From IMG/VR virus record IMGVR_UViG_3300037397_000012: a stretch of 20,000 bases of DNA. One strand, given 5' to 3'. Shown here piece by piece: positions 315 through 20,000 of the stretch. A model generated the notes under the pieces. It had not been told where the DNA came from. It saw nothing but the letters and a program-made list of their open reading frames with translations, and searched no databases. The translations under genes and the position numbers were made by a program. Each line of letters opens with the position of its first letter. The first letter of the stretch is position 1. Source of the stretch: an uncultured virus (IMG/VR IMGVR_UViG_3300037397_000012) (taxonomy: Duplodnaviria; Heunggongvirae; Uroviricota; Caudoviricetes).

Positions 315-317
315 ATA

Positions 318-519: not shown

Positions 520-1413
520 TTAAAAAGGAATATCTTCTATACCTATATCATCACCAACTTCTTGCATAACCTCTTCTGCTGTTTTCTGTACTGGTGATTG
601 CTGAACTTGCTTAGTTTGTTGTGTATTCTGTGCCACAGGCTGCACAATCTCTACTTCTTTTACTTCTTCCTCTGGTTTTGCATACTCTTGTTGTTTTCAA
701 ACCTCTCAATATTTATTTTTATAAAACTCTCTATTTCATGGTAGGAATGCTAGTATTTCATCATTCTTCTTTCTTACTTCATCTTTTTGTTCTTCTGTAG
801 CCTGTACTCAAGTTCAGGTAATATTAAACATATATCTTGCTGAGTATTTTTGGGCTTCTATTCATTTAAGCTTATTTAATTCTTCTTCTGAAATTCTTTC
901 TTTTGTTTCTGTATTTTCAAATTCCATTACTCACTTAATTGAACATACCTCATTTGGATCTGCTTCTTTTAAGAAATCCATTGCTGTTCAAAAATTCTTT
1001 CATGAAAGAAATATTTCTTTTAGCATTCAATCATTTAGATCTAATATTGTTATCGCTAAATGTAGTGATGCTTTTCACTTAATATTTTCTTTGATATCTG
1101 TTGTCCGATATCATTTTAATACTAAGTCACTAACCGATCATGAACTAAGAAATGTATGCTTAACAACATATAGTGGTTCATTCCAATCTTTTATCTCATT
1201 TGATGTATAACTTGCTGTAAATTTATTAGCAGTTTTATCAAATACATTTCACTTTAATGTATATCAAATATCTACAATTAAGAAATTATCTAAATCATGT
1301 ATTATGTTATCTTGTTTTTCTTTAACCCGTTCTACAAAATCTGTTTTATAAGTTTTAAGAAAAACCTGTACTGGGTTACCACCACTTTTTTTAACTCTAT
1401 CTTTCCAATTCAT
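520..1413 (-). CDS. Putative phage single-stranded DNA-binding protein (297 aa)
   Basis: Open with TGA=Gly; Q/E/P-rich linker and acidic C-terminal tail ...VGDDIGIEDIPF* typical of SSB tails; replication-module context. Confidence 0.7.
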
Positions 1414-1523
1414 ATTATAAAAATATTAAAAATATAAAATAAAAATAATTTTGGAAAAATTAATTATTTATAATAAAAAATTATTTATTTAAAATTTCCA
1501 AAAAAATTACTAGTAAATTCATA

Positions 1524-1642
1524 AGAATATTACAAAAAAATTAAAAATCAATATATCATAATTTTCGTTAGAAAATTAAATACATCACAGTTTTCGTTAG
1601 AAAACTTTCTATACATTATATAGATAATATATTTTATATCAA
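1524..1642 (-). promoter_or_regulatory. Tandem sigma70-like promoters plus two operator-like palindromes upstream of the SSB-like gene
   Basis: TTGATA(1642-1637)-16-TATAAT(1620-1615); TTGATT(1551-1546)-16-TATTCT(1529-1524); direct repeat of near-palindromic TTTTCGTTAGAAAA at 1562-1575 and 1591-1604. Confidence 0.6.
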
Positions 1643-1689
1643 TCTAATATGTGTAGATATGTGACTGTTATGTAGTCGGTCACATATTA

Positions 1690-1935
1690 TTATTTAAATT
1701 TTTCATAACACTCACTTAATGTTTTGTATTCTGTTTTTATGAAATCATACTTAGGTTTTATATTTTTAATTAAATATTTTCATTTACTTTCTGATTCTAT
1801 CATTAATTTCTTATCTTCTTCTGAAATATTTTTGTATACATACACAAATGCTCATCTAGTAAAATGTGTAATTAAATCATTACCTCTAAATATTGCATTA
1901 AACATTGAAGATTTTAATATATCTTTTTCATTCAT
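1690..1935 (-). CDS. KTSC domain protein (81 aa)
   Basis: MNEKDILKSSMFNAIFRGNDLITHFTRGAFVYVYKNISEEDKKLMIESESKGKYLIKNIKPKY matches the KTSC pattern SS...L...F..G..Y.Y..V......L..A.S.G.Y....IK..Y. Confidence 0.7.
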
Positions 1936-1938
1936 AAT

Positions 1939-2439
1939 TTATATATGTTTATTAATAATATTTATTGCTTCTTTATATCAGTAGCAAACATAAGCTGATG
2001 CTCATTTATTTAAAAATTCTATCCATTCTATTTGTTCGTCACTAACAGAAGTTCAGTTAGCTCCTCATCTTTTTCATTTAGCTTTTTTAAGCTCAATATA
2101 GATTGGAGAGTTATTTCATTCTTTATCTTTTAAAAAGATAATATAATCTGGGAATCATTTACTTACTCAAGATGCTTTTTTCTTAGCCATCATTATTACT
2201 ATATTCTTTGTTCCAGCTTGTCACGACTCATTTGGTATATGAGTGTGTCTTATTCACTTATCACTTAACCGTTTATGTAATATTTTTCAATGTTCATATT
2301 CAGTTAATTTTGTGTATTCTTTTTCTGGTTTTATTTTTTTCTGTTTTTCCTCTTCTGGTTTTAGTCATGCTATATTATAAATTCTATCAGCTTCATCTTT
2401 ACCTAACATTGATAATAAATCTTCATAATTGTAGTTCAT
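1939..2439 (-). CDS. VRR-NUC domain nuclease (putative Holliday junction resolvase, 166 aa)
   Basis: TEYEHGKILHK[CGG]LSDKGIRHTHIPNE...GVSKGFPDYII...IYIELKK...SDEQIEWIEFL...AYVCYGYKEA; PD-(D/E)xK VRR-NUC motifs, with conserved Gly encoded by TGA. Confidence 0.85.
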
Positions 2440-2461
2440 AATTAAGTTAAATTATTATATC

Positions 2462-2731
2462 TTATTATCTTGCTCAAGATTTCTTTTTAAGATAAACGAA
2501 TAAACATATATCAATAACTACAATAATAATAAAATCTGATATTCAATTAAATATAAATATATTTAATATAGGTATAATTACTGATACAGTTTTTTCTAAT
2601 TTATTATTTCATTTAAATATCTTTTTATATCAAAATATTATTATATTACATATAACATATTTATAAAATAATTTAATTCTATTTCTTATTACATTTACAG
2701 AAATATTATCTATAAATTTTTCTGATTTCAT
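2462..2731 (-). CDS. Small hypothetical membrane protein (89 aa)
   Basis: ATG..TAA open with TGA=Gly; hydrophobic C-terminal half. Confidence 0.5.
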
Positions 2732-2737
2732 GGTATA

Positions 2738-3739
2738 CTAGTTAATAAATAATATATATAATATAAAAGTTAAATACATAATCAATAAATTGAATCAATA
2801 AATCTTTTTTATTACTCATTTACTGTTTATTGAATATGTTGTTACAACATATACGATAACCGAAAATATTAAAAATGCAAATATAGGGATTATAGAATTA
2901 AATTCAATAACTGGATTTAATCACATAAAACTAGTTCATATAAGTATAGGTACTCATAATCAAATGCAAACATCAAAAATATTTGATCAAACTGCATTTG
3001 ATAGACTAGCATCTATATTTCATTTCCTAGAAGATTTTACTGATAATAATGTATCTGGTATAGATGTTATTGCTGCTAATAATACTAGCGATATTACTAT
3101 TGTAGATATTCAAAACATGCGTCATATAAATTCAGCACATCTTATTGATAATTCAACTCATATATAAGTTAAAAATAACATAAATATTATTTTTATAAAC
3201 TTAATATTTGGTAGCCATGTTATAGTATCATCTGTATCATCATCTTCTGATTTACTTTCCATATATAAATATATTATATAAAAGCAATATAAAGATATTA
3301 ACAATATAGACATTATAAATAAGTTACCAACATACAATCATGCAAGTAATATAATTATGCTTAACATGTAAAATATAACATCTCTGTTTACTCAGTTAAT
3401 TATTTTGAATCATTTCCTACTAACTCTCTTATATAAAAGAATAGAACAAAATGGTATTATTAATATATTAAAAATAGCTGATCATGATATTGTTCATATT
3501 CAAACTTCTAATCCTTTTTCTTTTAATAAAATCAAACTAATAATTGCCGTTAGAAATTCAGGCAATGAACTTGATATAGCATCTAGTGTTGCTCATCTAA
3601 CAGATCAAGTCATTTTAAACTTATTTCATATTATAGATAACTGATCTTCTAGTTCTCATGTAGCATAATTTATTAAAAGCATACATCATAATAATGTAAA
3701 AATAACTCAATAAATATTTCAAACTAATATATTTAACAT
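2738..3739 (-). CDS. Ca2+/cation antiporter (CaCA, Na+/Ca2+ exchanger family; 333 aa)
   Basis: Two alpha-repeat motifs: VRGATLDAISSSLPEFLTA...GIGTISGSAIFNIL and LAAITSIPDTLLSV...GNIDASLSNAVGSNIFDVCIGLGVP; many TM segments; open only with TGA=Gly. Confidence 0.9.
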
Positions 3740-3755
3740 TCTTAATTATATATTT

Positions 3756-3790
3756 AAAAAATAAAAGCCAAGCAATAACTTGGCTTATTA
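3756..3790 (-). terminator. Intrinsic terminator/attenuator between terD and the CaCA gene
   Basis: Minus strand AAGCCAAG-TTATTG-CTTGGCTT-TTATTTTTT. Confidence 0.65.
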
Positions 3791-3793
3791 TCA

Positions 3794-4321
3794 CTATAGA
3801 GATTTAACAACCTCTTCAATGTTACCTTTAAGATAATCTCACATAGCTTTAAAACTATATCAGTCATCTTTGTCAGTTACAACACCTACTACTATAGCAG
3901 TATTGTCACCACCATTTTCTGTCATCTTATATGATGCAAGAACCTCATCAGTCTCGTCATTGTAAACTTTACATTCAGCATTGTTTACATCTTTCAATGT
4001 TTGTCATTTTTTATCTGCTTCATATATATTTACACATATAAAGTATTCACCATCTGCAGTTAAAACGGCATCCATTTTAGCAAATTCATCATCGCCATCT
4101 CATTCACCAGTTAGATTATCATCAGATAATTGAACTCATTTTATTGCATTCTTCTTATTGAAGTAAGCAACCTTATTACTATCTTTATGAAATATAAATA
4201 GATCTAAATCCATAGTTTTCCCTTCAGAAACATCCCAAGATAATCATACTCTTATCTTAGATATATTAGTTCAGTCTTCTTTTTTTAGGTCTAGACTTTG
4301 ACCTTTAGTTAAATCCAACAT
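3794..4321 (-). CDS. terD: TerD family stress/Ca2+-binding protein (175 aa)
   Basis: MLDLTKGQSLDLKKEDG...IRVGLSWD...MDLDL...LSDDNLTGEGDGDDE...VNIYEA...GQTLKDVNNA...FKAMG; hallmark TerD motifs. Confidence 0.9.
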
Positions 4322-4351
4322 AATTATATATGTTAAAAAATAAAATATTGA

Positions 4352-4467
4352 GTAAATAAAAAAACTCAATGTGCGTGTTGAGTTTTTCCTTGTATCATAA
4401 TCAATACAAATCACGCACTCATCTGTATTGATGTTTATCATATTATTATTTTTTTTATTTAAGTCAA
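4352..4467 (-). promoter_or_regulatory. Promoter plus two-hairpin kissing-loop leader ending in a terminator, upstream of terD
   Basis: TTGACT(4467-4462)-16-TAATAT(4445-4440); hairpin 4400-4432 with loop GAGUGCGUG; terminator hairpin 4360-4387 with loop CACGCACA and U-tract. Confidence 0.65.
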
Positions 4468-4890
4468 ATTATTTTTTAAAAAATTATAAATCTTTTCGTA
4501 AACTTCTTCTGTTTGTTCGTCTAGGGATTTTTTATTATTTAATTTAATTCTTAATTCTTTAAACATATAATTGAAAATTAAATTACCTCATACAAGAGAT
4601 AAAAAAATTTTATTTTCTTCACAAAACCACTCTAGGTGGTGTCTATGTATAGGGTTTCAGATTATTTTTATTTCAAAATTACCTTCTTCAAGATTTAATA
4701 ATTCCATTCAAAAAATAAAATTATTATCATTCAATAAAATATATTCTTCTCAATTAGGTGTTTCTATTCAATAGTCATATTCATTAGTATCTAATATTTT
4801 TAATATTGTTCAAAACTTCAATTCTTCCAAATCATCCTTTATCTCTGGAATTGTTTTTAATAATTCTATTAGTTTATTTTTATAGTTCAT
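4459..4890 (-). CDS. Hypothetical protein (143 aa)
   Basis: ATG..TAA open with TGA=Gly (MNYKNKLIELLKTIPEIKDDLEELKFG...PLDEQTEEVYEKIYNFLK). Confidence 0.7.
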
Positions 4891-4941
4891 ATTTTTTAAT
4901 TAAATTATAAATATTATCTTTAAATTATATTATAAACTTTA

Positions 4942-5124
4942 TTATTTTAAACTTAAATAATTATCATAAAATTCTTCTACTAGATTTTGTATATCATGTA
5001 ATTTATCTAGCATTTCTTGATCTTCTATAAAGTCTTCTTTTACTTCCTTTTCTATTCAGTCAACAAATTCAAATATTAACATTCATTCATTTTTAGATGG
5101 ATACCATCCATATATATTATCCAT
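4942..5124 (-). CDS. Small acidic hypothetical protein (60 aa)
   Basis: ATG overlaps the HNH stop; open with TGA=Gly. Confidence 0.55.
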
Positions 5125-5506
5125 AAATTTTATTTAAATAATTAATACAATAACCTCTTTGGTTATCTCACCTAATTCAATTATGTATATTATGGTGACA
5201 CTGTCTACATAGTCACACTCATTTTTGTTTAGTATTTCTATCTTCTGTATACTCTGCTTGTCATCAAAAATAAACATGATGATAATCGGTTATTTGTCAC
5301 TGACATATGATACAAACCTTATCTCTATTAAATATCTTCTTTTTTGTCTCTATTGAAAATAACGCTGTTCTTCATTTATTTGATGTATCTTTTTGTATCT
5401 GTTTAGATTCTTTTTGCTTATTATAATAACACTTTATACATAAAGACATTAAAGGATTATTATGATTCTTTTTTCTTCAACACTTTTTGCATTTGTTTTT
5501 TTTCAT
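5117..5506 (-). CDS. HNH endonuclease with zinc-binding motifs (129 aa)
   Basis: CKKCG...LCIKC...KKIFNRDKVCIICQGQITDYHHVYFGG...RN...GVGLCRQCHHNIH. Confidence 0.85.
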
Positions 5507-5511
5507 AAAAA

Positions 5512-5760
5512 TTATTTAATTCTATTTAAATGTATATCATATCAATAATAACTAACTCATCAATAAGTTATATTACAATATATTTTTCTTTTTCTGTATT
5601 TCCTTCTTTGATGTTTTTTTGTTTTTATCTTTAAGATTCAAACACGACTCCATAATTCATAATTCATAATCATTAAGTTCATAAAATAAACCACTTGGAA
5701 TTTTAGATCTATTATAAGCTGTTCATGCTGATGATATTTATATATATAGAGTATGTTCAT
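5512..5760 (-). CDS. Small hypothetical protein, start uncertain
   Basis: One frame open from ATG 5760 to TAA 5512 with TGA=Gly; alternative internal ATGs and competing frames exist. Confidence 0.35.
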
Positions 5761-5798
5761 TTGTTTCCCATATTCTAATTTATTAAATAATTATAATA

Positions 5799-6083
5799 TT
5801 ATGACTCACTTATAATTTTAAAATTAATATTATCATTACAAGTATACTTATATTTTCATCATCATATTCAAAAGTGACTTCAGCAATTAGGGCAGTATTC
5901 ACTCCATCTATCTATATCTGCAGAACAATATTCACAATAATATCCTTGATATTCTCTATTTATTTTATGTTTACTACATAATAAATATTCCATTGTTCAT
6001 ATATGTAATATTTGTCACGGATCATCTCAAGCTTTTATTATAGAGTAATCCTTTCAACATACAACACATTTAAAATTATTCAT
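5799..6083 (-). CDS. Small Cys-rich zinc-ribbon protein (94 aa)
   Basis: CVVCG...LCSKH...YCEYC...YCPNCG with TGA=Gly. Confidence 0.7.
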
Positions 6084-6093
6084 TTTAAATTTT

Positions 6094-6579
6094 TTATCAA
6101 ATTAAACTATAAATTGAAACTATTTTATTATTAAATGAATCATATATCTTATTCTTAAATCTACCTCGTAGATGTACGATATACTTTATTCATTTTAATT
6201 CAAATATTATTTTTCAATATTTCTTTTTAAAACTAAAGTTATTTTTAATATACTCAATTGTATCTATATGTTTTATGATCTTATTTGTTATTCATTTTAA
6301 TTTTTCCAATATAGTCACAAACATATCTGTTACACTATAGGTATTACATCTATACTTATTATTATTACACTTAACCATTCATTTAAATTTTATGTATCAA
6401 TGAATTCTTAGGTGATTAATAAAATTAAGCATTTGTCTCTCTGATAATCAGAATCTAATTCACTCAAGTCTAGATATTCATATTATTCAATATGTTTGAA
6501 ATCTAACTTTTATTGTAAATAATATTCTATTAACTTGTTTTTCTGAAATATTTTTAAATAAGTTATTTAAATCTTCCAT
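6094..6579 (-). CDS. Putative winged-helix DNA-binding protein (161 aa)
   Basis: ...GIRFGLSERQMLNFINHLRIHGYIKFKG...CNTYSV resembles the wHTH of phage replication/regulatory proteins. Confidence 0.5.
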
Positions 6580-6584
6580 AATTT

Positions 6585-6725
6585 ATAAAACAAAAAAGAA
6601 TACAGTTGCCTGAATGTATTCTTTTATAAGTTAGTTTTTTTAAAAACTCTCAGGCAAATGAGTTTCTAAAAATGTATCTCCTCAAATTTATGAGTATATA
6701 ATAATAATTCTAAAAATAAAATCAA
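6585..6725 (-). promoter_or_regulatory. Promoter plus two-hairpin kissing-loop leader ending in a terminator, upstream of the wHTH gene
   Basis: TTGATT(6725-6720)-16-TATTAT(6703-6698); hairpin 6637-6672 with loop AUUUGCCUGA; terminator hairpin 6594-6625 with loop UUCAGGCAAC and U-tract. Confidence 0.65.
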
Positions 6726-6743
6726 ATCTTTTTTTTTATTTAT

Positions 6744-6971
6744 TTAAAATAATCTATTGATAGCTCAAGATAAAGCTAGTTCTCATATTATAAATTTTTT
6801 CCTATCTATTAAACTTTTCTCTGTTCAATATGTAACCATTCAACAACTATAACATATTTCAACTTCTCATTCATTATAAGCTATTTCTATTCAATCTTCT
6901 CTATAATATTTATTTCACGAAAATTTAAATCAGTTTATTTTCATTATATTTGCAAATCTCATATTTTCCAT
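6744..6971 (-). CDS. Hypothetical protein (75 aa)
   Basis: ATG..TAA open with TGA=Gly. Confidence 0.6.
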
Positions 6972-6976
6972 TTTCT

Positions 6977-7126
6977 TTATTTTAATAAATTAATAAAATT
7001 TTTTTCAACATCCATGATTTTAATCTGTTTCATTAATTTTATTTTTTCACTTTTACTCAAATTGAGATACTTAAAAAAAATATCTCTAGTTTCTCTTTTC
7101 ATTCAATCTAACTCTATTAAACTCAT
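6977..7126 (-). CDS. Small hypothetical protein (49 aa)
   Basis: ATG..TAA open, packed in operon. Confidence 0.45.
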
Positions 7127-7204
7127 TTTAATAATTATTATCTAATAAATTAAACCACCTTGTATATTCAATCCTTTCATAACTTATATTCATCAAATAT
7201 GTTT

Positions 7205-7750
7205 TTTATAAATATGGAGGACTAAGTTTAGCCCATAACCTAGGGGTCATAACACCCTAGGATAGAAAAAGAAACCTCGTAGGTTACACGAAATTATTTA
7301 TGTTGCAGTTAAATTACTATCCATGTTAGTACTATACATAAATAGCTAGAGACCTTTTATCTAGAACAAGGTTTTAACATCTCTATGTTATATATATCTA
7401 TGTATATATATATAATAAGAAGTGTTAAATTATAGCTCCACCAAATGAGCTACTCTTAGATATTTTATATAAAAAATAATCATTAACCTTTTATCCAATT
7501 GTTGATGTACCACATCATAGTTGGTTAAACCAATTGCTTTCAGCTAAACATTAAACAATGATCAATCGTTTAATATCCTTATCATTTTAAATAAAAGGCT
7601 ACTGATTATCTTTTATAAAACAAAAAAGCTAACCAATTGGTCAGCTTTTATTACCTAAGTTTGACACCTAGATGGGTCAACAGTACTAGGTGCTGACCAA
7701 ACCTAGGTAACTGTTTTGTTACTTTACAAGAAGTAAAGACAATAGAAAAT
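7205..7750 (-). ncRNA. Putative large structured non-coding RNA / long leader RNA of unknown class
   Basis: No convincing ORF; many nested inverted repeats (7239-7261, 7273-7285, 7373-7429, 7433-7452, 7476-7609 enclosing 7548-7576, 7624-7649, 7651-7710); most G-U pairs favour the minus strand; promoter directly upstream. Confidence 0.55.
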
Positions 7751-7758
7751 GCTTATAT

Positions 7759-7786
7759 ATATTAATATTTTTTTTTATAATTGCAA
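7759..7786 (-). promoter_or_regulatory. Sigma70-like promoter
   Basis: TTGCAA-16-TAATAT followed by ATATAAG, the same downstream sequence as the promoter at 9829-9856. Confidence 0.6.
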
Positions 7787-7793
7787 ATGTTTT

Positions 7794-8318
7794 TTATATT
7801 TTCATTAATTTATCATAACACATCTTAATTATTTTTGCATCAAATAATGCATTATGCTTTATTGTTTCTCACTTGTATCACACAAAGTCTTCTCTTGTTA
7901 TATCTGGATCTACTCACTTTACTTTCATCAATGTACATATATCAAATGGAATATAATATATATTACTAGGTAGATTAGGGTATCAATCCTTGTAATCCGC
8001 TAATAATGTATTAAACAAAACCCAGTCATAAGATAAACAATCACTCCATACTTCTATATTATCTCATTTATCTTTTATCCATTTAAGTAATTTACTTCTA
8101 ATAAATTCTTTTGTTCATGTGAATTCATTCTCATTATCGTGACTTATATCAATATTACTTATTACATTTTCTCTTATCCAGTTATTACATTTTGTCACAT
8201 CATAATCTGTAAACTTTCAATAGAAAGTATCTCAGTCTTCTGATATTAATCATATACTTATTAGCTCTGTATATTGTATTAATCATGTAAACTCACAATC
8301 AAAAAATATTTTATTCAT
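7794..8318 (-). CDS. DEDDh 3'-5' exo(ribo)nuclease, Rv2179c/DUF5051-like (174 aa)
   Basis: KIFFDCEFTGL...LISIGLISEDGDTFY...WIRENVI...WSDCLSYDWVLF...IPFDICTL...DPDITRE...KHNALFDA. Confidence 0.85.
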
Positions 8319-8334
8319 TATATATTATTAAAAA

Positions 8335-8604
8335 TTATTGTATCTTTTTTCTTATAGTATTTAAATCTATAGCCTGTCTTATTGTATCATCTTCTACAAA
8401 TACAGCCAATGTATTAGCTAAATTTCATAATAATAAATCTAATAGTTCTTTAATTTCTGGATTAATTCATGAAGTAACTATTACTTCTTTTTGAGATAAT
8501 ATTTCAGTTAAATCTCTGAGTCTTTCATTGTCACAATCCATTATTACACTTTTATCATATTTCTTATTCTGCTCTTTTTTATCTTTATTTCATAATCAAA
8601 ACAT
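8335..8604 (-). CDS. Hypothetical protein (89 aa)
   Basis: MFGLGNKDKKEQ... open with TGA=Gly. Confidence 0.6.
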
Positions 8605-8638
8605 TGTATCTTTATTAAAATCTAAATTAATTTTTTAT

Positions 8639-8866
8639 TTATCAAACAAAATAAAAACCAAAATGTATACATCATATTCTAAATAAATTTCTAAATCATT
8701 TATAAATAACTTTTCAATCTTTAATAAAAGAATCAAATATAATAATATGATTAAATTTTAAATTTAAATAACAATCTTTATGTATTCAAAATCTTTTATA
8801 TCAAATATTATTATTCAATAAAAATTTTTCTATTTTATCTATTTTATTATTTTTTCTTTTTTTCAT
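8639..8866 (-). CDS. Hypothetical protein (75 aa)
   Basis: ATG..TAA open with TGA=Gly; an out-of-frame upstream ATG lies at 8880. Confidence 0.45.
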
Positions 8867-8925
8867 CCTAATCAAAACATTTTTTATATATTATTTATTA
8901 AATCAATAAGTATTTATTATAAAAA

Positions 8926-9534
8926 TTATTGATTATAAAAATCATCTATTAGCTTATATATACTTTCAAGTAATCTATCTTCCATTCTATAATTATATTC
9001 CAAACGTTCTTTTTCCTCTTTTAATAATTCATATTCTTCTTTTAACTCCATGTATTTCATTTTATAATCAATCTGTTCATCTTCTCATTTATAATTCATA
9101 GCATACCATCATAAACACTTATTGTAACTTCTTCTATTTTCAATAACTCTATCATCTGCTCAATATCAATTACCATTACCTGTATTAGCTTCTAGTATTA
9201 TTATTCAATCATTATAAGACTCTAAGACTATAGCAACATGTCACATGGTTCAATATTCCCAAAAAATAAGATCTCATATATTAGGTTTCAATCATTTTTT
9301 ATAATTTGTTTTTTTAAAAAAATAATCTCAGTTTTTCTGTCAATGTAAAAAATTTTTTTGAAACGCATTTTTTGCATTTCCATAAAAGTATATTGATGGA
9401 ATTCAAAATTGATCTCTTAACCATAGTTTAGCTAAATCCACGCATTGTCCTCAAAAAGCTCAGTCTATATCTATAGATTGTCAATACTTTCAAAGCCGTT
9501 TTTCTTTGAATTCTTTAATGTTTAATTTGCTCAT
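8926..9534 (-). CDS. CHAP-domain endolysin/amidase with C-terminal coiled coil (202 aa)
   Basis: EFKEK[CGG]LGK...IDIDGAFGGQCVDLA...GNAK...PNIGDLIFW...GHVAIV...ILEANTG; catalytic Cys/His of CHAP present. Confidence 0.9.
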
Positions 9535-9578
9535 AATTTAGTTAATAATAAAATAAAAGCAGTCTCGTGTGATTTTCT

Positions 9579-9828: not shown

Positions 9829-9906
9829 ATATTAGTGTATCACTAGTTAATGTCAAAAGATTTTATATAGTTTTTTACTTGTTTTTTATATGACTATTAT
9901 TATAAT
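9829..9906. promoter_or_regulatory. Divergent sigma70-like promoter pair
   Basis: Minus: TTGACA(9856-9851)-16-TAATAT(9834-9829); plus: TTGTTT(9879-9884)-16-TATAAT(9901-9906). Confidence 0.65.
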
Positions 9907-9940
9907 AAATATGTATTTTTTATTTATTAATAATATTATT

Positions 9941-10399
9941 ATGACAAATATTAAGGTTCTAATTGATAATTTAAGAAAAGATCTTTTTGAAAATTTAGAT
10001 AAATCTAAAAAGATACTTTCTATACTTAAAGAAAATCCAGCTTTCCCATATAACCTAGAGATTGAAGCAGCAAAATGTATATGAGAAATAAGAACTGCTA
10101 CATTAAGATATAAAAACATACTTAAATACTTAGAGAATGATAACTCTTTATTGTCTTTAGATAATATAAGAGAATTAACAAAAGACGAAAAAGATGAGTT
10201 TAAAAAACTTCGAAAAGAAAGTAAATCTCTTCCAGATGATTGACCATGAATGAATACTGATGATAGACATAGAATGCTGTCTTTAATGTTTCTTGATCAA
10301 GCCAATAAACTTAAAGATATGGCAATTAAAGAAAATGATGAAAATGCAAAGAAGCAAGCATTAAGAAATTATGAATGATATATTAAGTATTCAAAATAA
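9941..10399 (+). CDS. Hypothetical helical protein (152 aa), the only plus-strand gene found
   Basis: Track ORF extends through in-frame TGA codons to TAA 10397-10399; has its own promoter and terminator. Confidence 0.75.
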
Positions 10400-10666: not shown

Positions 10667-11248
10667 TTATCTATTATATAATATCTTTGCTAGTCTTCAT
10701 GGTGATATTGATATAGCATCAACTCAACATAATCTTTTTATCTCCTGTAATCAAGCAGTAACTACCTGAGAACAAAACCATGAATCTTTTTTATAAAACA
10801 AAAGTGTTTTAAATATTTGAGCAAATACTATTCAAACATAATTATATCTTTTGTTATTTTGTTTTATACAAAAATTTAATACATCTAAATATTGTTGCTT
10901 ACTTACTTCTATATCATGATAATCCCAATTTCATTTATTATCATCTATAAATTTAAATCTTGTTCATCAGTCAACTTCTGATGATGAAAACCGTAAGCCA
11001 TATTTTAACCAATCATCAAAGCTATAACATTTCATATTTGTATTCAATACAATACTAAAGATTCTACTAAATATATCTTGTTTTGATTTTAATATAGTAT
11101 TTACATAATCTCATTTAAATACCAATTCAACATGAGAATACTTACTAAACTCTCACAGTTTATCAATATTCTTTTGTTTAAACCTTATAGCTTTTCAAAA
11201 GTTGGTTTTAGAATTTTTATAAAAAGCTACTCTGATTATATAGTGCAT
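10667..11248 (-). CDS. Permuted papain-like (NlpC/P60, YiiX/YebB-like) amidase/peptidase (193 aa)
   Basis: VAFYK...YSHVELVF...GL[CGG]FSSSEVDGGTRFK...WD...KRYNYVGI...WFCSQVV...ISPGRL; His precedes catalytic Cys. Confidence 0.8.
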
Positions 11249-11264
11249 ATTATATATTTATATT

Positions 11265-11417: not shown

Positions 11418-11435
11418 ATTTTATATAGTTAAAAA

Positions 11436-11651
11436 TTATTTTACACAATTTAAATCAAATTCATTTAATGAATCATATATATAATCAATTTTTTCAAACC
11501 CTGTTTCAATTCTTTTTTTGTCTATTATTGTAACTGAATTTCAGTTTATTAGACTATCAATCTTACATCATAAAAATACAAGCATTGCTATTATTATTAG
11601 CAATAGTATGTTTGTTATATTCTTACTTTCTTTAATTCCTATTCCTTTCAT
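11436..11651 (-). CDS. Small single-TM membrane protein (71 aa), possible lysis accessory
   Basis: N-terminal hydrophobic stretch ILLLIIIAMLVFLGC; overlaps the holin-like gene stop. Confidence 0.5.
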
Positions 11652-12019
11652 CTTAATATATTAATAATTAAACTTATTTTATCTAATATTCATTTTAGAA
11701 TTTGTCACAATCCTTTAATTCAATTAGTTTCAATATAATCAAATATAATAAAAGTCAATCCTCATGATATAGATGTAATAGAGTATCGCATATCTCATAT
11801 TGTTATTTTTCATATTCATTCTATATTTATATTCTCTGGTATAAAGTCTTGTATTACCATACCGAACCAACCAGATACTATTATATAAATAATAAAATGT
11901 AATAGTTTAAACCTTTTTCAAAGTCTTATAGTATTAAGATAAACTGCTATTCATCAAAATCAAGCTAATAGAAAAAATATTAAATTCTTATCTATATAAT
12001 CTTTTATATCTTTATACAT
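11639..12019 (-). CDS. Holin-like membrane protein (126 aa)
   Basis: LAGFGGIAVYLNTIRLGKRFKLLHFIIYIIVSGWFGMVI...; about 3 TM segments, LydA-holin-like pattern, follows the tail genes. Confidence 0.6.
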
Positions 12020-12050
12020 TATTTATTATTATCTATATATTATTATAAAG

Positions 12051-12079
12051 ATTATAGCAATTAAAATACTATAAATCAA
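12051..12079 (-). promoter_or_regulatory. Sigma70-like promoter with extended -10, upstream of the holin-like gene
   Basis: TTGATT-17-TATAAT, with TG at the extended -10 position (TGCTATAAT). Confidence 0.5.
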
Positions 12080-12081
12080 AT

Positions 12082-12546
12082 TTAACCTAATGCTTTTATT
12101 TTATTTTCTAATTCTATTTCCTTATCTGCATAAAATTGTTCAAAAGCATCTGTCTTATCTTTTATATATTGAGCAAATTCCTCTTTTTGTATTCATTTAT
12201 TTTCTGCTCTGGCTTGTATATAAACACTATTTCATCAATTTAATACATCCTGTGCTAGTTTACTAATATATTGCATTTTCTTTTTTTTATGCTTTGGTGT
12301 TTTTTTGTTATCAAACAATATTATATTTTCATACTCTTCTATAGCATCATCAAATTCTTTATTGTATTGATCTATTTTATTTTGTTTATCAACTTCAACC
12401 CAAGCAATTTCCAACTCTTCTTGTGTTGGTTCTATGTAATTTTCTGATATCCATTCTAAAATTCAACTATCTATATTATAATCTCTTGTTTCAATAAAGT
12501 CACTATTAATTTTTAATAGTGCTTGTCTTATTTTATAATCATTCAT
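12082..12546 (-). CDS. Tail-fibre assembly chaperone-like protein (XkdW-like N-terminus; 154 aa)
   Basis: ALLKI...ILEW...EPTQEELEIAW; C-terminal ARAENKGI...FAQYI shared with 15025-15429; directly follows a fibre gene. Confidence 0.6.
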
Positions 12547-12564
12547 AAAATATATATTAATGTA

Positions 12565-15015
12565 TTAAACTACAACTTCAAATCAACTTCAAAATATTTT
12601 TTTACTTCAAAGCGTTCATCATGAATTATTATAGAACCTATAACTTATTTTATCTCAAGCTGAAAAACTAACTTCGCTAGTATCACTGAAAATTCAAGTA
12701 GTCCCAAATGTTATATTCAATGCAGTGTCAACTCAATTTTTTCTTAAAATAAAATTTCAGTTTGTTGTTCAATTAAACTCATAGATGTATATAAATAAAT
12801 TCTTAATTGTGCAATCTACTGGTACAACTGAAAAATATGCTTCTATTCATAATGAACTATCTAATCAAGGTGCTCAATAATAACTATTAGTATCAGAAAC
12901 TCATGTATTTAAAGCATGAGCATATGTGCATATAGAATTTCAACCTCCTCAACTAGGTGTTTGCCATTCTGGTGCTGTAGCTCAAGCATTCATTGTTAAT
13001 ACCTGGTCTGCTGTTCATTTTGCAAGTCTAACATTATCGCTTCAATTATGGTAAATTATATCTCATTGTGTTGTTGTTGGTGCAAGATTATCAAATGCAA
13101 CAGTTTTTGTACTTCAACCTGTTCATCAGTCAGCTATAGCTAAATCAGTTATTCAACTTATACTTCATCCTGTTATACTAACTGAATTACTGTTTTGTGT
13201 AGCAATGCTTCATAGTCACAATGTGGTTCTTTGAGCTGAATTATCAGCATCATCTAACAATGCTCTTCAGGCAGTTGTACAAGTTATTTCTTCAACATCT
13301 CAAGCTCAAGCTGTACTTCTTCATAATAGTTTATCAGTTGCACTAACATTCTGCATTTTAGCATATGTTACTACATCATTATCTATTGTCCATGTAGTTC
13401 AACTTCAAGATACTGTTATATCTCATTTGTCACCATCAGCAATTCATCCAATATTATCATCTACATATTTTTTATTTGCTACTTGATAATCTGTTGTTGG
13501 AGATGAACTTGGTGTAATTAGAAAGCTTGAAAATGTTTTAACTCATGCTATTGTTTGATTTCATGTAGTAGCTACTGGAGTTATTTGTGTTGGATTTGTT
13601 ACTATAAATTCTCAATCTTTATCTGGAAGTACATATGTATTTGCTGTAGTTGTTGGTAATAATGATACATCAAAATATGCCTTTTTAGTTGGATCTACAT
13701 CATCAACTAAATAAGTTGAATTAGCATCTAGTCATTTATTTTGAAGTACCTCTGAACTTGTTGCACTAATTAATGTAATGTCACTATCTGGTATTATAAT
13801 AGTTCTTGTTGTTCAAGTTGTAATTCAAGATACTTGGAAATTTATTTTTTTTGTAATATCTTCTTCATCAAATATTGTAAAATTATTATCTGCAAAACTT
13901 GTATTAAATGCATTAACTCATCAAGAGGCTGTTAATGGTGTTAAACCCCTTAGATCTGTAGTAGATACTACACCCCAAGTTCACCCTCAAGTTTTCATTT
14001 GTATTGTTACTCTTGCAATTAGAAATCAAGTTGAACTTTCTTTTGTAAAAGAATCAGGAATTGAAAAGTTATCATATCCACTTATATCATTTTTGGCATC
14101 TGTTTCATTAGCATATATTCATCATGGTAAATTAATCATTATAGGATTATATGTTCAACTCTTATTCGCTACAGCCCAAAATACTAAGTTAAAAAATTTA
14201 TTGTTTCATATTAATGTACCTGTGCTATCAGATGTTATATCATATAAATTAGTTATTGATTTATATGGTGTTACACTATCATTTATAACTAAAGCATTAT
14301 CTCAAGTACTAGTATCTAATGCTGTTACTGTTTGCCTGTGCATTTGATAAATTATTCAAGCTGTAGACTTAAATTCTACATTACCAGCAGTTGGTGACAA
14401 ATATCAATCTGTACCATTTCAATCAATACCTGAATAATAAGTAGCAGGAAAGTGTCTTATTTTTTCTCATATATGAGATAAATGTCATTGGTTATTATCA
14501 AAAGCTAATTCATCATTCCGATTTTGATTTATATATACACCATTAGATTGTACATAAGTTGCACTAGGAACTAAGAAATAAGCTATCTTTATATGTTCTA
14601 CATCTGTTGGAAATCAAGTTGTAGATTTAGTTAGTAACTTAGTGCTTTTAAGTATATATATAAAATTCTCTTGCGGTGAACTATCTGATCCAGCTGTTAA
14701 TTCTATTGTTAAAGCAGGCGTACAATCTAAAATTGTTTCTCAATCAGATAGATGTAAAGTTAAATCTCCTCATCCAGATTTCTCTATACTCATTGTTATA
14801 GTTGTTCAATTTGAGGATACTGTAGCATCAAATTTTTCAGCTATTGTTCAATTCCAAAAATCTCTAAATTCTCAAAATGAAATTCTATTTTCATTTCATG
14901 ATGAATCTAGTCAATACAATAAATCATCAGATTTAAAATACAACTTATTAAATCATGTGTCTGGATTAGATGGTATATCTATATTTTGTATCTCTAATGC
15001 TTTTAATTTTTTCAT
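12565..15015 (-). CDS. Phage tail fibre protein (816 aa)
   Basis: Frame consistent with TGA=Gly at the positions checked; fibre modules such as FTIFDEEDITKKINFQVSGITTGTTRT, DGDKGDITVSGSGTTWTID, RALLDDADNSAQRTTLGLGSIATQ, LAIADGGTG, GTADQVLTMNAGATAPEW. Confidence 0.85.
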
Positions 15016-15024
15016 GGTAAAAAA

Positions 15025-15429
15025 TTACTTAATATTTTTAATTTTATTTTCTCTTTCTATTTCACATTCTAGAATAAATTCTTCTGCTGCATTATATTTA
15101 TCAACTATTTCTTTAGCATAAACCATTGGTGTTATTCATTTATTTTCTGCTAGTCTTTTTATAAAGTTATCATTTTTTCAATCTAATATCTTTTTTGCTT
15201 TTTCTAACCTTTTATCAAATCTTTTCTGCATTTCAGATGGATATTCAGAAAGATACTCTTGTATCTTCCTGTCATATTCATTATTTATTTCTTTTAATTT
15301 TTCTCATCTAATGTATTCGTTATAGGTTTCATTTGTTTCTAGGTATAGTTTTCATCTCTCATTTACCTTAAACTCAACTCAAAACTCTTCTTGTAGCTCA
15401 AGTTGTTTTTTTGTTAATCATTCAATCAT
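15025..15429 (-). CDS. Tail-fibre assembly chaperone-like protein (134 aa)
   Basis: EINNEYD...LSEYP...KRLEKAKKIL...LAENKGIT...YAKEIV; paralogous to 12082-12546; follows a fibre gene. Confidence 0.65.
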
Positions 15430-15446
15430 AATTAAATATTACTAAA

Positions 15447-17234
15447 TTAAATTATTGTTACATCCTGTATAACCTTTAAACTTCATTGAGTTCAGTTATC
15501 TCAGTCTAATCAATTATTTCAGTTGTATGCTGTTCACACATATGGCGTAAGTGTTTGGTCTGTTGTGTTTTCTTCTTCAACCTTTGTTCATCATGCTCAT
15601 CATGATCATCATACTCATATTGATTGATTATATGAAATTGAATTTGTTCAACTATGATAAACTATAAGTATACCTCAGCTTCAACCTCATCAACCTCATC
15701 AACCTCATCATCAACCTCAACATCACATAACCATATTTGTTTGATTATCAACTATTGCATCTGATCAATTTCATCAATTAGTTCAACTAGTTCATGATGT
15801 ATTAATTACTCAAACTCAAGATAAATCTTTTGCATATAGTAATACACCTAATCAACTTCATCATCTTTCTCATCATGCTCATCATGCTCATCATGATCCT
15901 CAATAATTCCAACTTCATATTGGTGTTGTATCTCATACTAGTCACGAACCTGAATATGCATCTCATCAATCTCATCATATTTGATTCACTCAACCTCACG
16001 CTCATCACGAAGAAGATCATCAATCTCATGAATTAACTATAATAAAATCAGCTCAATCAAAGTATGTTCAGTTTCAAGCTCATCATACTCAAGCTGGATT
16101 TCATCAATCTCATCAATCTCATCATCATCATGTTATGTTTATATATGTTGCTCATGGTGATGTTCAAAAATGAAACACTGATCAAACTATTCATCATCAA
16201 CCTCATCATCAATATCACAATGCTCATAATCATCATGTTCATCATGGATTTCATGAATTACTTCAATATCAAATTGTACTTCATCAATTTCATCCTCCTC
16301 ATCAATTTCAACTAGATCAATTAATTACCGTTTCTCACCATATAAATGAATCTAATTCCTCATTTGCTGACCTATAAGTTGACTTATTTGATAGATCTAT
16401 TTCTCAATTTATTGTACATGTTCATTTACATTTTAATTGTAAAAATCATGATACATCATTAGTTGATAACTTAGCTCATGCTGCTATGTTAATATTATCA
16501 TATTGATATAATTGATTTGTATTTAAGTATGTAGTTCAACTTAATACATTTAAATCTCAGTCACTACCATCTCAATATATGTATTCTGAAAATTCTGTTG
16601 TAGATGCTGTAAAATATTCTAATGCAGTTCATCATGCATTAACTCTTAATTGTTGTAATGGTGTTCATAATGTACTTAATCATGTTCATCAATTGTCATA
16701 TTGTAATACTGATGATACATTTGTTGAATTTAGATTTATTGGATTTACTATTATTATTTGTCATCATCATGATATTAAATAACTTTCTGGACCTGCTAAT
16801 ACTACATCTCATGTATTTGTTCAACTTATATTATTTGCTGTTATATTTCATGGTGTATTTATATTTCATCAATCATCTATTGTAACTAGACTATTTTGAA
16901 TAAGCTTACCTGTTATTCAGTCATATCTGGCTATAGCATTATCTGTTGCTCATGATGGTCATACTACATCTCAACTTCATGCTCATGATGCATATGGTTC
17001 TAATTCATATTTTCAAGATCATACTTTATAAACTAATACTTTTTCATCTCACAGATCTGTTTCATCAACTTCTTTTGTTCATACTAATCATCAGATTTGT
17101 ATTTCATTTCATGATGAGTTTAGACTATATAATAAATCATCTGATTTAAAATATAGTTTGTTAAATGTTGCATCTGGATTAGGTGGTGTCACAACCTGCT
17201 TATACTGTGGTATAGCATATCTCTTCATACTCAT
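15447..17234 (-). CDS. Glycine-rich phage tail fibre / receptor-binding protein (595 aa)
   Basis: GDVVGPSGATDNAIARYDGITGKLIQNS module; long Gly-rich C-terminal region encoded by TGA/GGT runs; N-terminal motif shared with 12565-15015. Confidence 0.85.
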
Positions 17235-17366
17235 ATCTCTTATTTATTATTAAATAAATTATTATTATAGCTTCCATAAAGCTCTCGGTGTCACCTATGA
17301 CAATTGGTCTTAATAACAAGTAAGAGATACCAAACATTAAGTTTGGTCTCCTATTTGTTTTAGTTA

Positions 17367-18380
17367 TTATCATGTAATAACAACTCTATATTGATCTGTT
17401 GTTGGAGCTGTACTAAATTCAAATGTTGTTTGTGTAGAACTTGTTAAGATTATATCACACTCAACTTTTGCTCAAGTAGATTCATTGAATACTTGTGCTG
17501 TTACATATTGAACTCATAATCAATGTGTTACAGCTATACTGGTATCTGATCCATTACCTATTGTTCAAGTATATTTTCTTGTAAATGTAGATAGTCCTGC
17601 TGGAGTTACCGATCTAACAGTATCTGTTTTAGCTTCTGATTCTGCAACTGTAGCAAGCTCAACTAAACCTAATGTGGTATCAGTTGCTTGTTCTCTGTTG
17701 GTTTCTAGAATAAACCAGTTAGATCCGACTGTTGCTTGATCTCAAGATGCAGTTGAATCTGTCTTACAAACTATCATATCTCATACATCTACATTAATTC
17801 AAGATGCTCAACCTATTTTACCTGCTACTGAGACAACATAAGCATGTCAAGCATCTGCTGCTGGATAATCAGGATTAGCAGAACAATCTATATTTCATTG
17901 TAATGTAAATGCATCTGCTGTTGCTACTGCTGCATCAACATATGATTTAACTGCATCGGCTCTTGCTAATTCGTCACTAGCCGCTGATACACTTAGGTCA
18001 GTTGTTATATCTGCTGAATTAAGCATTGCATAATCAACTGATCAAGATTGTATTGTTGTAACTCATGTTGAATCAATTGCTATATCTCAAGATATTGCCT
18101 TGTTATCCCAAGTATCTACACCATCATAAATAAGTATATTTCCTGATGCAGGTGTTACTATGTTTGTGTCGCTAAGTCAAGTTAAACTATCTGATCAATC
18201 ATCTTCTGTTAACAGTTTTTTAAATGAAGATCCTGTATATAACTTAGCTCTATTGTCATCTGTATCATAAAATATCTGTCCACTTATTGGTGAAGACGGA
18301 TCTGCTGATGAGTTTTCTAAAACTCAATTCACTAATTGATTTTGGTTTAAATCAATATTTACTAAAAACTTTTTTGCCAT
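17367..18380 (-). CDS. Phage tail/structural protein (337 aa)
   Basis: [40 protein letters not shown]...TRKYTGTIGNGSDTSIAVTHGLG...FSTAPTTDQYRVVITG*. Confidence 0.8.
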
Positions 18381-18433
18381 AATGTTTTTGTAAAGAAATA
18401 AAGTTAGTTTATTGTCATCTCGGACTGAATAAT

Positions 18434-20000
18434 TTAATTACATATAACCATTCATGTATTTGATCAAACCCATGTTATATCAACTGTATTTAAATTTGTA
18501 TATTTAACTGAACATATTATCTGTGTCAGTGTATCATCAACAACTACAACACTACAATATTTATTTAAGTTATGTGTTATTGTTATTCATCAACTAATAT
18601 TAGTAAATGATTCTGTATAATTCTTATCATCAACTGATGATGTTCATGGTTCAGATTGTCATAATACTACACATCTTCAATCAACTGTTCAAGTTAAATT
18701 AAGAGTAATATTATTTGAATCTACTATAGTATAGTCATCTATTAATATAGGATTATTACTAGAATCATAACACTGTAATATTATATCTTCTGTATCTAAT
18801 CAATGACTTATATTCCAAGTATTATTTGCTGATCACTGATTATGAATATACATCGATCATGGCAATCAAGTTGATGATTGGTTTGCTTTTCATATTATTA
18901 CACATTTTCAACTTATAGAAGATGTTAATTCTACTTGTATATTTCATCAATCAATAATAGTGTAATCATTTATTTCTATTGGGTTGTTACTTGAATCATA
19001 GCATTGTAATATTATATCTTCTGTATTTAATGTATGACTTATATTCCATATATTACTTACAACACCTTGGTTATGTATGTACATAAGATTGGAATTTTCA
19101 TTTGGTATTGCTCATGGTATTTCTACATCTATAACTCATCAGTTGTATGTTGCTGTTACTCATTCTCATATAAAGTTAATTATATTAGATGGAGTTAGAC
19201 TTACTCATTCATCTTGTACTATTATTTGATTATCTGGTATAGTATCCATTTCATAATTAAGATACATTGATTTTATTCTAACACTATCTGTTATAGTATC
19301 TAATTCATTTATATCCCAATTCTGTGCGAACTCTGGATCTGTCACATACACTCAATGTCTGAATATTTGTACATACATTGTATTTCAATCTAAGAAATCA
19401 AGTCAACTAAATGACTCAGGTTTCAAATCAAAATATCAATGTCCTGTATTTATATCTACTTGATATGGAATTGAGATCCGTTTACTTGATAAATTTCAAT
19501 CTAAGTCTACTATTCTAATGTGTGTTTGTATTAAAGCTTTTCAACTTGCTCATAGCAATTGAGTATAAACTCTTAGTCTATTTATTCATGTTATTCAACT
19601 TATATTTACATCTCAATAAAATCAAGATCTAACTTCATCTGGTAGTACTATATACATTTGAGTATCTAGTATTTCTCTTTCATTTTGCCAATGAGCTGCT
19701 GTTCATCAAATAGGAAATACAGATATATTTTTTGCTCATGTACTAGTCACTGTTGCATAATCTAAACCTATTGTAGCTACTCAGTCAACTACTGACACTG
19801 TTATTCAACTGTCACCAATTGCATCTTCTAAACAGTCTTTATCTTCTATTCAGTCTAACTTATTTTTTAAATCATTTGTAAAGTCATTAGTACTTAATCA
19901 TTTACCAGTTATCTTATCAACTTTTCAGTCTAATGCTGTTGCTACTGCTAATTCTGTTGGATATAATGTATCATTAGCTAATGATGAATCTCTTACTGTT
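18434..20000 (-). CDS. Phage tail/structural protein (5' end outside the window) with C-terminal tandem repeats
   Basis: DGKVDKITGKGLSTNDFTNDLKNKLDGI motif; two close C-terminal repeats of type YIHNQ...W.ISH.L.TEDIILQCYDS plus a diverged third. Confidence 0.8.

Follow-up and report, generated by a model that had tools for sequence, protein, structure and literature searches.

A high probability attaches, in our judgment, to the conclusion that the stretch of DNA analyzed here (20,000 nucleotides in all, referred to below as the window) comes from a tailed phage whose bacterial host translates UGA as glycine, and that this phage decodes CGG as tryptophan rather than arginine. CGG is very probably decoded as tryptophan besides TGA as glycine, i.e., in the doubly altered code of the host. 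The same double reassignment had been proposed in a first-pass annotation of the DNA. Homologue columns at 3 of the 7 CGG sites support that proposal, and its pointer to Absconditabacterales as the host clade is not demonstrated.

Gene content and the reading of TGA as glycine

The window is clearly phage DNA. Pfam and PHROG searches identify endolysin, holin, HNH, tail fibre, and virion protein families in it. A blastn comparison of positions 1 to 8000 with named phages gave no match. One DNA run, from a salt marsh metagenome, contains the stretch and is probably its source; no RNA runs were listed.

UGA is decoded as glycine. The genes are open under translation table 25 only, which gives 61 ORFs of at least 60 amino acids in the window, compared with 19 short ones under table 11, and 442 of the 533 glycine codons are TGA. 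In homologue alignments of the VRR-NUC gene and the 193-aa gene described below, the columns at TGA positions are glycine at frequencies of up to 1.00. Codon counts were taken over 5678 codons in 29 ORFs. Arginine is written as AGA (124 codons), AGG (16), CGT (2), CGC (2), and CGA (about 3; range, 2 to 4), all CGN codons together number 14 in the counted ORFs, and TGG is still in use (37 occurrences). These counts agree with the earlier statements that arginine is almost always AGA or AGG and that TGG has been retained. The GC content is 0.21 to 0.31, and this low GC, together with scarce CGN codons and arginine encoded mainly by AGA, fits a code of the UGA-glycine, CGG-tryptophan type.

Seven in-frame CGG codons

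There are exactly seven in-frame CGG codons in the window, all on the minus strand, with the coordinates and flanking residues that the first-pass annotation had reported. The genes that carry them are as follows.

520 to 1413, minus strand: gene for a 297-aa SSB-like protein, without family match, with a C-terminal ...EDIPF tail; two CGG codons
1939 to 2439, minus strand: VRR-NUC nuclease gene (Pfam PF08774, E 2.2e-08)
8926 to 9534, minus strand: CHAP endolysin gene (Pfam PF05257, E 2.7e-11; PHROG endolysin families)
10667 to 11248, minus strand: gene for a 193-aa protein (phrog_1128; distant YiiX-like, permuted papain-like)
12565 to 15015, minus strand: 816-aa tail-fibre gene (Pfam BppL_N and DUF5907; PHROG tail fiber)
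18434 to 19999, minus strand: fibre-like or virion structural gene (PHROG matches), continuing past the window edge

The codons themselves lie at the following positions.

1105 to 1107, minus strand: CGG, residue 103 of the SSB-like protein, KGY-[CGG]-TTD
1327 to 1329, minus strand: CGG, residue 29 of the SSB-like protein, FVE-[CGG]-VKE
2269 to 2271, minus strand: CGG, residue 57 of the VRR-NUC nuclease, ILHK-[CGG]-LSD
9496 to 9498, minus strand: CGG, residue 13 of the CHAP endolysin, FKEK-[CGG]-LGK
10991 to 10993, minus strand: CGG, residue 86 of the 193-aa protein, YGL-[CGG]-FSSSE
14518 to 14520, minus strand: CGG, residue 166 of the tail-fibre protein, NQN-[CGG]-ND
19478 to 19480, minus strand: CGG, residue 174 of the partial 521-aa fibre-like protein, LSSK-[CGG]-ISIP

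Replication, lysis, and tail genes all contain such codons. CGG is commoner than CGA, CGT, or CGC despite the low GC content, an excess that is odd if all CGN codons are synonymous arginine codons. One alternative is that CGG is ordinary arginine and that the tryptophan-like contexts are coincidental, the seven being rare codons at variable positions. The frame counts (7, 8, and 2 in frames 1, 2, and 3, respectively) fit this alternative, because CGG in frame is not above frame 2. The in-frame count does not exceed chance; the signal is the location of the codons in homologue columns.

CGG falls on tryptophan columns at three of seven sites

Homologues were aligned at the CGG sites, as the first-pass annotation had suggested. 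Tryptophan is the commonest residue in all 3 CGG columns with usable homologues, and arginine accounts for 0 of 45, 2 of 150, and 0 of 4 residues. Arginine or lysine at these columns had been named beforehand as one outcome that would count against tryptophan.

At residue 57 of VRR-NUC, the column for 45 homologues has 24 W, 18 Y, 2 F, 1 H, and no R; in the standard-coded subset (34 of the 45) it has 23 W, 10 Y, and 1 F. The nearest relatives mostly have Y, not W, at this position. The codon is N-terminal to the Pfam-matched stretch, and the PDB matches of VRR-NUC begin downstream of it.

At residue 86 of the 193-aa protein, the best 150 of 408 homologues have 57 W, 34 S, 23 C, 10 F, 10 M, 3 A, and 2 R, plus others, and a standard-like subset of 106 residues has 36 W, 22 C, 21 S, 9 M, and 8 F, with an R+K fraction of 0.01. 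This column also tolerates S, C, M, and F, and W makes up only 34 to 38% of it. The two R rows speak for ordinary arginine, and one of them is P0020, a low-glycine, high-tryptophan relative that has probably itself been read with the wrong code. The NlpC/P60 label first given to this protein is weak: the protein has no Pfam match at E 0.01 or better, one homologue matches Peptidase_C92 below the cut-off (E 0.0068), and what stands is a match of a 60-sequence profile to YiiX (2if6; E 0.0015).

At residue 166 of the tail fibre, the comparison could be made at the codon level. Four standard-coded viral contigs (L037 to L040; motif NQN-W-ND) have TGG, TGG, TGG, and ATC. Fibre residues 1 to 300 gave no match in the phage protein collection.

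Other codons of the same genes served as controls. In the standard-coded homologues of VRR-NUC and the 193-aa protein, the CGG columns have W fractions of 0.68 and 0.34 and R+K fractions of 0.00 and 0.01. The TGG columns of this subset have W fractions of 1.00, 0.97, and 0.77, and its eight AGA/AGG columns have R+K fractions of 0.11 to 0.85 with W at no more than 0.03. Codons that do encode arginine in these genes thus fall on R/K columns, which argues against the same meaning for CGG. With assumed background frequencies, the summed log-odds for CGG are +15.5 bits for W, +0.8 for Y (the next best), and −6.1 for R, which places W ahead of R by about 21.5 bits; the homologue rows are related to one another, and the column counts are therefore not independent events. 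Based on the alignments, CGG occupies tryptophan or aromatic columns, and not arginine columns, at 3 of 3 testable sites, and we regard ordinary arginine as highly improbable.

Two other amino acids were considered and rejected. Glycine, which is raised by the ambiguous W residues of the homologue P0002 (see below), occurs in 0 of 45 and 2 of 150 rows at the VRR-NUC and 193-aa columns, and tyrosine occurs in 1 of 150 rows for the 193-aa protein and 0 of 4 for the fibre. Degenerate patterns built from conserved peptides had 0 matches in viral contigs and 0 in metagenome contigs.

Tryptophan could also reach these proteins with the code unchanged, if CGG were converted to UGG by C-to-U editing of the mRNA. 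Plant organelles edit in this way, and CGG there was once mistaken for a tryptophan codon. Editing and reassignment would produce identical homologue columns, and the present data do not separate the two. To our knowledge, neither bacteria nor phages edit their mRNAs systematically from C to U, and there is no deaminase-like gene among the Pfam and PHROG matches of the window. In addition, the accessible part of a Codetta screen (Shulgina and Eddy 2021, eLife 10:e71402, PMC8629427) describes CCG-anticodon tRNAs predicted to fit tryptophan in the candidate host clades. We consider editing very improbable.

The remaining four CGG sites

Independent homologue evidence covers 3 of the 7 CGG sites, and the 4 sites outside it are a point in favor of ordinary arginine. 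The SSB-like label carried over from the first-pass annotation is itself weak, as the 297-aa protein has no Pfam or PHROG match. Its sole homologue, P0002 (44 to 47% identity), has W at both CGG sites, but P0002 was translated with TGA as W, and its W residues could be TGG or TGA (glycine). Between the two sequences, 2 of 2 CGG and 2 of 2 TGG codons align with W, compared with 0 of 5 AGA codons. The phage protein collection contained no match to this protein, and no related loci were found in viral contigs with either the single protein or alignment A1 as the query. Its AlphaFold model is unusable (mean pLDDT 35).

For the CHAP endolysin, the outcome depends on the reading that is assumed. With CGG read as W, the codon lines up with W/W/W/Y/W/F in 6 phage endolysins, at the cost of a 1-residue gap; with CGG read as R, MAFFT moves F9 into this column and opens a 3-residue gap. 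This favors tryptophan but is suggestive only. The codon is N-terminal to the Pfam-matched stretch, PDB matches begin downstream of it, and a protein search returned only the window's own protein. At both sites of the SSB-like protein and at the one in CHAP, the alignments agree with tryptophan but do not count as independent evidence. For the 521-aa fibre-like protein, 6 viral loci were found, and they align to residues 3 to 106 only, short of residue 174.

CGA codons and a possible split CGN box

Three CGA codons to which the first-pass annotation had drawn attention are indeed in frame.

6166 to 6168, minus strand: CGA, VHL-[CGA]-GRFKNK, in the ORF at 6094 to 6579
10211 to 10213, plus strand: CGA, EFKKL-[CGA]-KESK, in the plus-strand gene at 9890 to 10399
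11786 to 11788, minus strand: CGA, GDM-[CGA]-YSI, in the holin gene

Usage per 10,000 codons is 12.5 for CGG and 3.6 for CGA. The ORF at 6094 to 6579 and the holin had no match in the phage protein collection, and no CGA site is covered by a homologue. A control position for CGC as arginine, in the Na/Ca exchanger, is L in NCX_Mj and is uninformative.

In the accessible part of PMC8629427, Absconditabacteria are predicted to read both CGA and CGG as tryptophan, and their tRNAs are consistent with this; for some Gracilibacteria, the same prediction is made for CGG. The statement in the first-pass annotation that CGA and CGG as tryptophan, on top of UGA as glycine, had been reported for Absconditabacterales was therefore correct. 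The same source gives CGA as commoner than CGG in Absconditabacteria, the reverse of the usage seen here. The host may instead belong to a Gracilibacteria-type lineage with UGA as glycine, only CGG as tryptophan, and CGA still arginine, a reading to which the predicted Gracilibacteria code and the preponderance of CGG over CGA both lend support. Two of the CGA codons also lie within K/R-rich stretches, where arginine would be natural. Against this, the codon numbers are tiny, context is no evidence of meaning, no homologue extends over any CGA site, and there is no taxonomic marker or host link. We therefore treat a Gracilibacteria-type host as possible but doubtful. Still less likely, in our view, is that phage and host share a split CGN box on a UGA-glycine background (CGG as tryptophan, CGA as arginine), as a Gracilibacteria-type intermediate or a new lineage. 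If true, such a code would differ from the published Absconditabacterales code and would be visible from phage codon usage alone.

The decoding tRNA and the host

ARAGORN and Rfam detected no tRNA genes in the 20-kb window. The phage would therefore rely on its host for a tryptophan-charged tRNA whose anticodon is CCG (or UCG), of the kind predicted for Absconditabacteria and some Gracilibacteria. Such a tRNA would decode the phage's CGG codons; according to the accessible part of PMC13092985, Absconditabacterales tRNAs with a CCG anticodon exist. With CGG read as tryptophan, drift between TGG and CGG would be a silent C/T transition, which would place CGG at tryptophan positions across replication, lysis, and tail genes.

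The tRNA might alternatively be supplied by the phage itself, from a part of its genome outside the window. It is common for phages to encode tRNAs matched to the codons they favor, and an identical VRR-NUC protein is recorded on a 67,120-base contig, which would leave the greater part of the genome outside the window. The tRNA-free window speaks against this source, as does a precedent in PMC8629427, where, in the part of the text available, two phages predicted to decode AGG as methionine also lack the tRNA and were judged host dependent. A phage-encoded tRNA seems to us unlikely, and host supply remains our preferred reading.

That the phage infects Absconditabacterales is unproven. When genomes were scanned with VRR-NUC, the sole match was in a Saccharimonadales MAG (32% identity). 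In the 401-genome sample of that MAG's phylum, a search for RpoB (PF04563) matched 392 of 401 genomes; there were no in-frame stops in RpoB among the 150 matches listed of 433, and none in ten further genomes checked singly. An RpoC motif written with TGA at the glycine position occurred in 0 of 401 genomes. No UGA-glycine genome was found among the sampled genomes, and these host-side negatives say nothing about the host.

Comparison with published codes and implications

The published Absconditabacteria code (PMC8629427, accessible part) and the code seen here share UGA as glycine, low GC, arginine as AGA, rare CGN, and CGG on tryptophan columns. They differ in that the present genome is a phage with inverted CGG and CGA usage and a tRNA-free window. 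In the same source, AGG is predicted to be methionine in two phage assemblies, which come from the same samples as Bacilli with that code. Like the present phage, they follow a sense-codon reassignment of the host with no tRNA of their own, whereas their codon and amino acid are different and their host keeps standard stops; here, a stop and a sense codon have both changed. The phages and prophages that use code 25 in Absconditabacteria and Gracilibacteria (Liu et al. 2023, mBio, PMC10746230) are likewise dense in in-frame TGA, following the UGA-glycine code of the host, but in the accessible text their code was judged from TGA and coding density only, and CGG, arginine, and Codetta each have 0 occurrences there. 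Recoded gut phages (TAG as glutamine, TGA as tryptophan; bioRxiv 10.1101/2021.08.26.457843) also use a nonstandard code, but, from the part of that preprint available, theirs differs from that of the host and is proposed to time late genes. The code of the present phage most likely mirrors that of its host. The literature searched, in which few subscription journals are represented, contains no mention of how phages of Absconditabacteria or Gracilibacteria decode CGG or CGA. CGG as tryptophan in bacteria and phages that follow their hosts have both been predicted since 2021, and the present phage thus adds to a known kind of system.

If CGG is tryptophan, standard software mistranslates this phage, since table 25 writes arginine for tryptophan 7 times in 20 kb. 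Public protein collections already hold the phage's own proteins as translations with TGA as tryptophan (P0001, P0003, and P0019), and back-translation of glycine as GGN misses its relatives in searches. CGG or CGA at tryptophan columns could mark the host clade of uncultured phages. A virus that shares one stop change and one sense change with its host would mean that sense-codon reassignment is no barrier to phages; in this one, TGG and CGG would simply interchange by drift.

Gene content and codon usage of the window

Read with table 11, the window contains 19 ORFs, all of them short; read with table 25, in which TGA is glycine, it is filled by an unbroken series of minus-strand genes. The GC content is 0.21 to 0.31, and TGA supplies 442 of 533 glycine codons (83%) in 28 ORFs. 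Pfam and PHROGs assignments include an HNH endonuclease, an RNase H-like exonuclease, a holin, and virion structural proteins, together with the VRR-NUC, CHAP, and tail-fibre matches among the features below. The window is a piece of a tailed phage or prophage. The single sequencing run found to contain it, probably its source, is a salt marsh metagenome.

520-1413 (-), SSB-like protein, 297 aa, CGG at residues 29 and 103
1939-2439 (-), VRR-NUC nuclease, CGG at residue 57
2738-4441 (-), adjacent Na/Ca exchanger (Pfam E 6.5e-37; NCX_Mj E 2e-13) and TerD-domain protein
8926-9534 (-), CHAP endolysin, one CGG
9890-10399 (+), 169-aa protein, 4 TGA codons, no family match; the sole plus-strand gene in the window
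10667-11248 (-), 193-aa protein, CGG at residue 86
12565-15015 (-), tail fibre, CGG at residue 166
15447-17234 (-), Gly-rich fibre-like protein, 595 aa, with 130 in-frame TGA codons by itself
18434-19999 (-), fibre-like protein, one CGG

The exchanger and TerD genes are possible auxiliary genes of host origin. The fibre genes at 12565-15015 and 15447-17234 share an N-terminal segment, NPD..FNKLYFKSDDLLY.L.SSGNE. Behind each of them comes a small gene for an acidic, coiled-coil-like product (12082-12546 and 15025-15429), and the two products have similar ...ENKIK ends. From their sequences, these pairs look like duplicated fibre-plus-chaperone cassettes.

A scripted count over 29 minus-strand ORFs (5678 codons) gives CGG 7, CGA 3, CGT 2, CGC 2, AGA 124, AGG 16, and TGG 37. 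The first-pass annotation had listed seven in-frame CGG codons, and its coordinates and contexts match this count exactly. By frame, CGG occurs 7/8/2 times (frames 1/2/3), so that the count alone is unremarkable; on the coding strand it occurs 17 times, against 7.1 expected from a dinucleotide model. CGG is commoner than each of CGA, CGT, and CGC despite the A+T-rich genome, a pattern that synonymous codons for arginine would not usually show. A CGA noted earlier near 10211 does lie in frame (10211-10213; EFKKL-CGA-KESK) in the plus-strand gene, which we take to be real because its base skew is reversed relative to its neighbours (A 0.45, plus strand). Two CGA codons sit within K/R-rich stretches, and no homologue covers any of the CGA codons.

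Residues opposite CGG in homologues

The first-pass annotation had proposed that CGG encodes tryptophan in addition to UGA as glycine, to be checked by the residues that homologues carry at CGG sites. This comparison supports the proposal: Trp is the commonest residue in all three columns, those of the fibre, the VRR-NUC nuclease, and the 193-aa protein. The tail fibre has relatives on four IMG/VR contigs (62, 51, 43, and 43% identity), which we consider standard-coded because they have 0, 0, 0, and 1 in-frame TGA. In a codon-by-codon alignment, the window's CGG at residue 166, in the conserved motif NQN-W-ND, stands opposite TGG, TGG, TGG, and ATC. The VRR-NUC column, from 45 sequences (15 database proteins, 29 viral loci, and one genome locus), holds 24 W, 18 Y, 2 F, and 1 H, with no Arg or Lys; the eleven nearest relatives (P0004 to P0014), apparently TGA=Gly-coded, mostly have Tyr. 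For the 193-aa protein, an exhaustive HMMER search yielded 408 relatives with E values no higher than 0.001; in the best 150 of the 408, residue 86 is W57, S34, C23, F10, M10, A3, R2, T2, G2, and I2, with Y, L, N, Q, and a gap once each. Of the two rows with R, one belongs to P0020 (65% identical; 1.4% Gly, 5.8% Trp), a relative translated with TGA as Trp, and its own R may therefore be CGG.

Such translations are frequent. The public copies of the window's own proteins (P0001, P0003, and P0019) were translated with TGA as Trp and are 92 to 95% identical to the table 25 reading, and many relatives have <2% Gly and >5% Trp because of the same translation. The 193-aa family has at least 408 relatives and no Pfam model; H39, E41, W108, Y135, C159, S160, and P183 are near-invariant, and the family profile hits E. 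coli YiiX (2if6) with an E value of 0.0015. The PHROGs name, "enoyl-CoA hydratase/carnithine racemase-like," looks wrong.

As an internal control, we compared columns by window codon in rows that are standard-coded by appearance (34 of the 45 VRR-NUC rows; 107 of the 150 rows from the 193-aa family, leaving out 43 rows with Gly <4% or Trp >5%).

Residue fractions in control rows, by window codon
CGG (2 columns): W 0.68, 0.34; R+K 0.00, 0.01
TGG (3 columns): W 1.00, 0.97, 0.77; R+K 0.00
AGA/AGG (8 columns): W <=0.03; R+K 0.11-0.85

TGA columns in these alignments are rich in Gly. In these profiles, CGG behaves as a Trp codon does and differs from the Arg codons of the two genes. Simple log-odds scores (pseudocount 5, assumed background frequencies), summed across the fibre, VRR-NUC, and 193-aa sites, come to +15.5 bits for W, +0.8 for Tyr, and -6.1 for Arg. 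Plain arginine is strongly disfavoured on the homologue columns. C-to-U editing of CGG in the mRNA, with the code unchanged, predicts the same columns; we give it a low prior probability.

The other sites carry less weight than those that point to Trp. The SSB-like protein, which has no Pfam or PHROG match, ends in an acidic tail (...DDIGIEDIPF) that we take to resemble the C-terminal tip of bacterial SSBs; its AlphaFold model (pLDDT 35) is unusable. Its one homologue among 5.8 billion proteins, P0002, has W opposite 2/2 CGG, 2/2 TGG, 8/15 TGA, and 0/5 AGA codons. Since P0002 was translated with TGA as Trp, its W may mean Gly; these columns argue against Arg without separating Trp from Gly, and Gly is excluded at the other sites. 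In the CHAP endolysin, compared with 6 of 70 matching phage records, the CGG adjoins a column that reads W/W/W/Y/W/F. As Trp, it falls on that column with a one-residue gap; with Arg in its place, MAFFT puts F9 there with a three-residue gap. This preference for Trp is circular and only suggestive. The CGG of the fibre-like protein at 18434-19999 lies outside the region covered by the relatives found.

Decoding of CGG

ARAGORN found no tRNA in the window, and Rfam found none either, at gathering thresholds in the whole window or with E values as high as 1 in the ORF-free stretch. Given this, the phage most likely relies on a host tRNA, which would have a CCG or UCG anticodon and be charged with Trp. 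We infer this step from PMC8629427, in which Codetta predicts that Absconditabacteria, whose tRNAs are consistent with it, read CGA and CGG as Trp and that some Gracilibacteria read CGG as Trp, and from CCG-anticodon tRNAs noted in Absconditabacterales in PMC13092985. A phage-borne tRNA beyond the window is possible, as an identical VRR-NUC protein is recorded on a 67,120-base contig. Once CGG is Trp, TGG to CGG and back would be a silent transition, and the spread of CGG over genes for replication, lysis, and the tail, with no restriction to a single module, fits this.

Directly downstream of the exonuclease gene, in an ORF-poor stretch (7127-7793), a long hairpin precedes another hairpin that carries a U-run (7610-7715, -). 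This region folds at -42 kcal/mol (z -6.15; none of 200 shuffled sequences does as well), has no Rfam family at threshold, is not a tRNA, and is probably a terminator plus an extra structured element.

Host and relation to known codes

The first-pass annotation had also pointed to Absconditabacterales as the host; this host is not established. The only match in a genome scan was one Saccharimonadales MAG. In a 401-genome sample of its phylum, there were no in-frame stops in RpoB among 150 of 433 matches listed and 0 matches to a TGA-bearing RpoC pattern; ten further genomes checked singly likewise had no in-frame stops in RpoB. Thus, no UGA=Gly genome was found in the genomes examined. According to PMC8629427, CGA is commoner than CGG in Absconditabacteria, whereas the phage uses 12.5 CGG and 3.6 CGA per 10,000 codons. 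This usage and the two CGA codons in K/R-rich stretches leave room for a host with CGG alone reassigned, in numbers too small to decide.

The bacterial CGG/CGA=Trp code is described in PMC8629427 and is restated in bioRxiv 10.64898/2026.04.02.715157. PMC8629427 also reports two phages that follow a host with AGG reassigned to Met. PMC10746230 deals with code-25 phages of these bacteria and mentions neither CGG nor arginine. Full-text searches of open-access papers and bioRxiv main texts found no paper on CGG/CGA decoding in phages of these clades. Pattern searches that back-translate Gly as GGN miss TGA=Gly-coded relatives. The phage's double reassignment is what the code of its host would lead one to expect, and it is probably the first explicit phage case in which a stop and a sense reassignment are combined.
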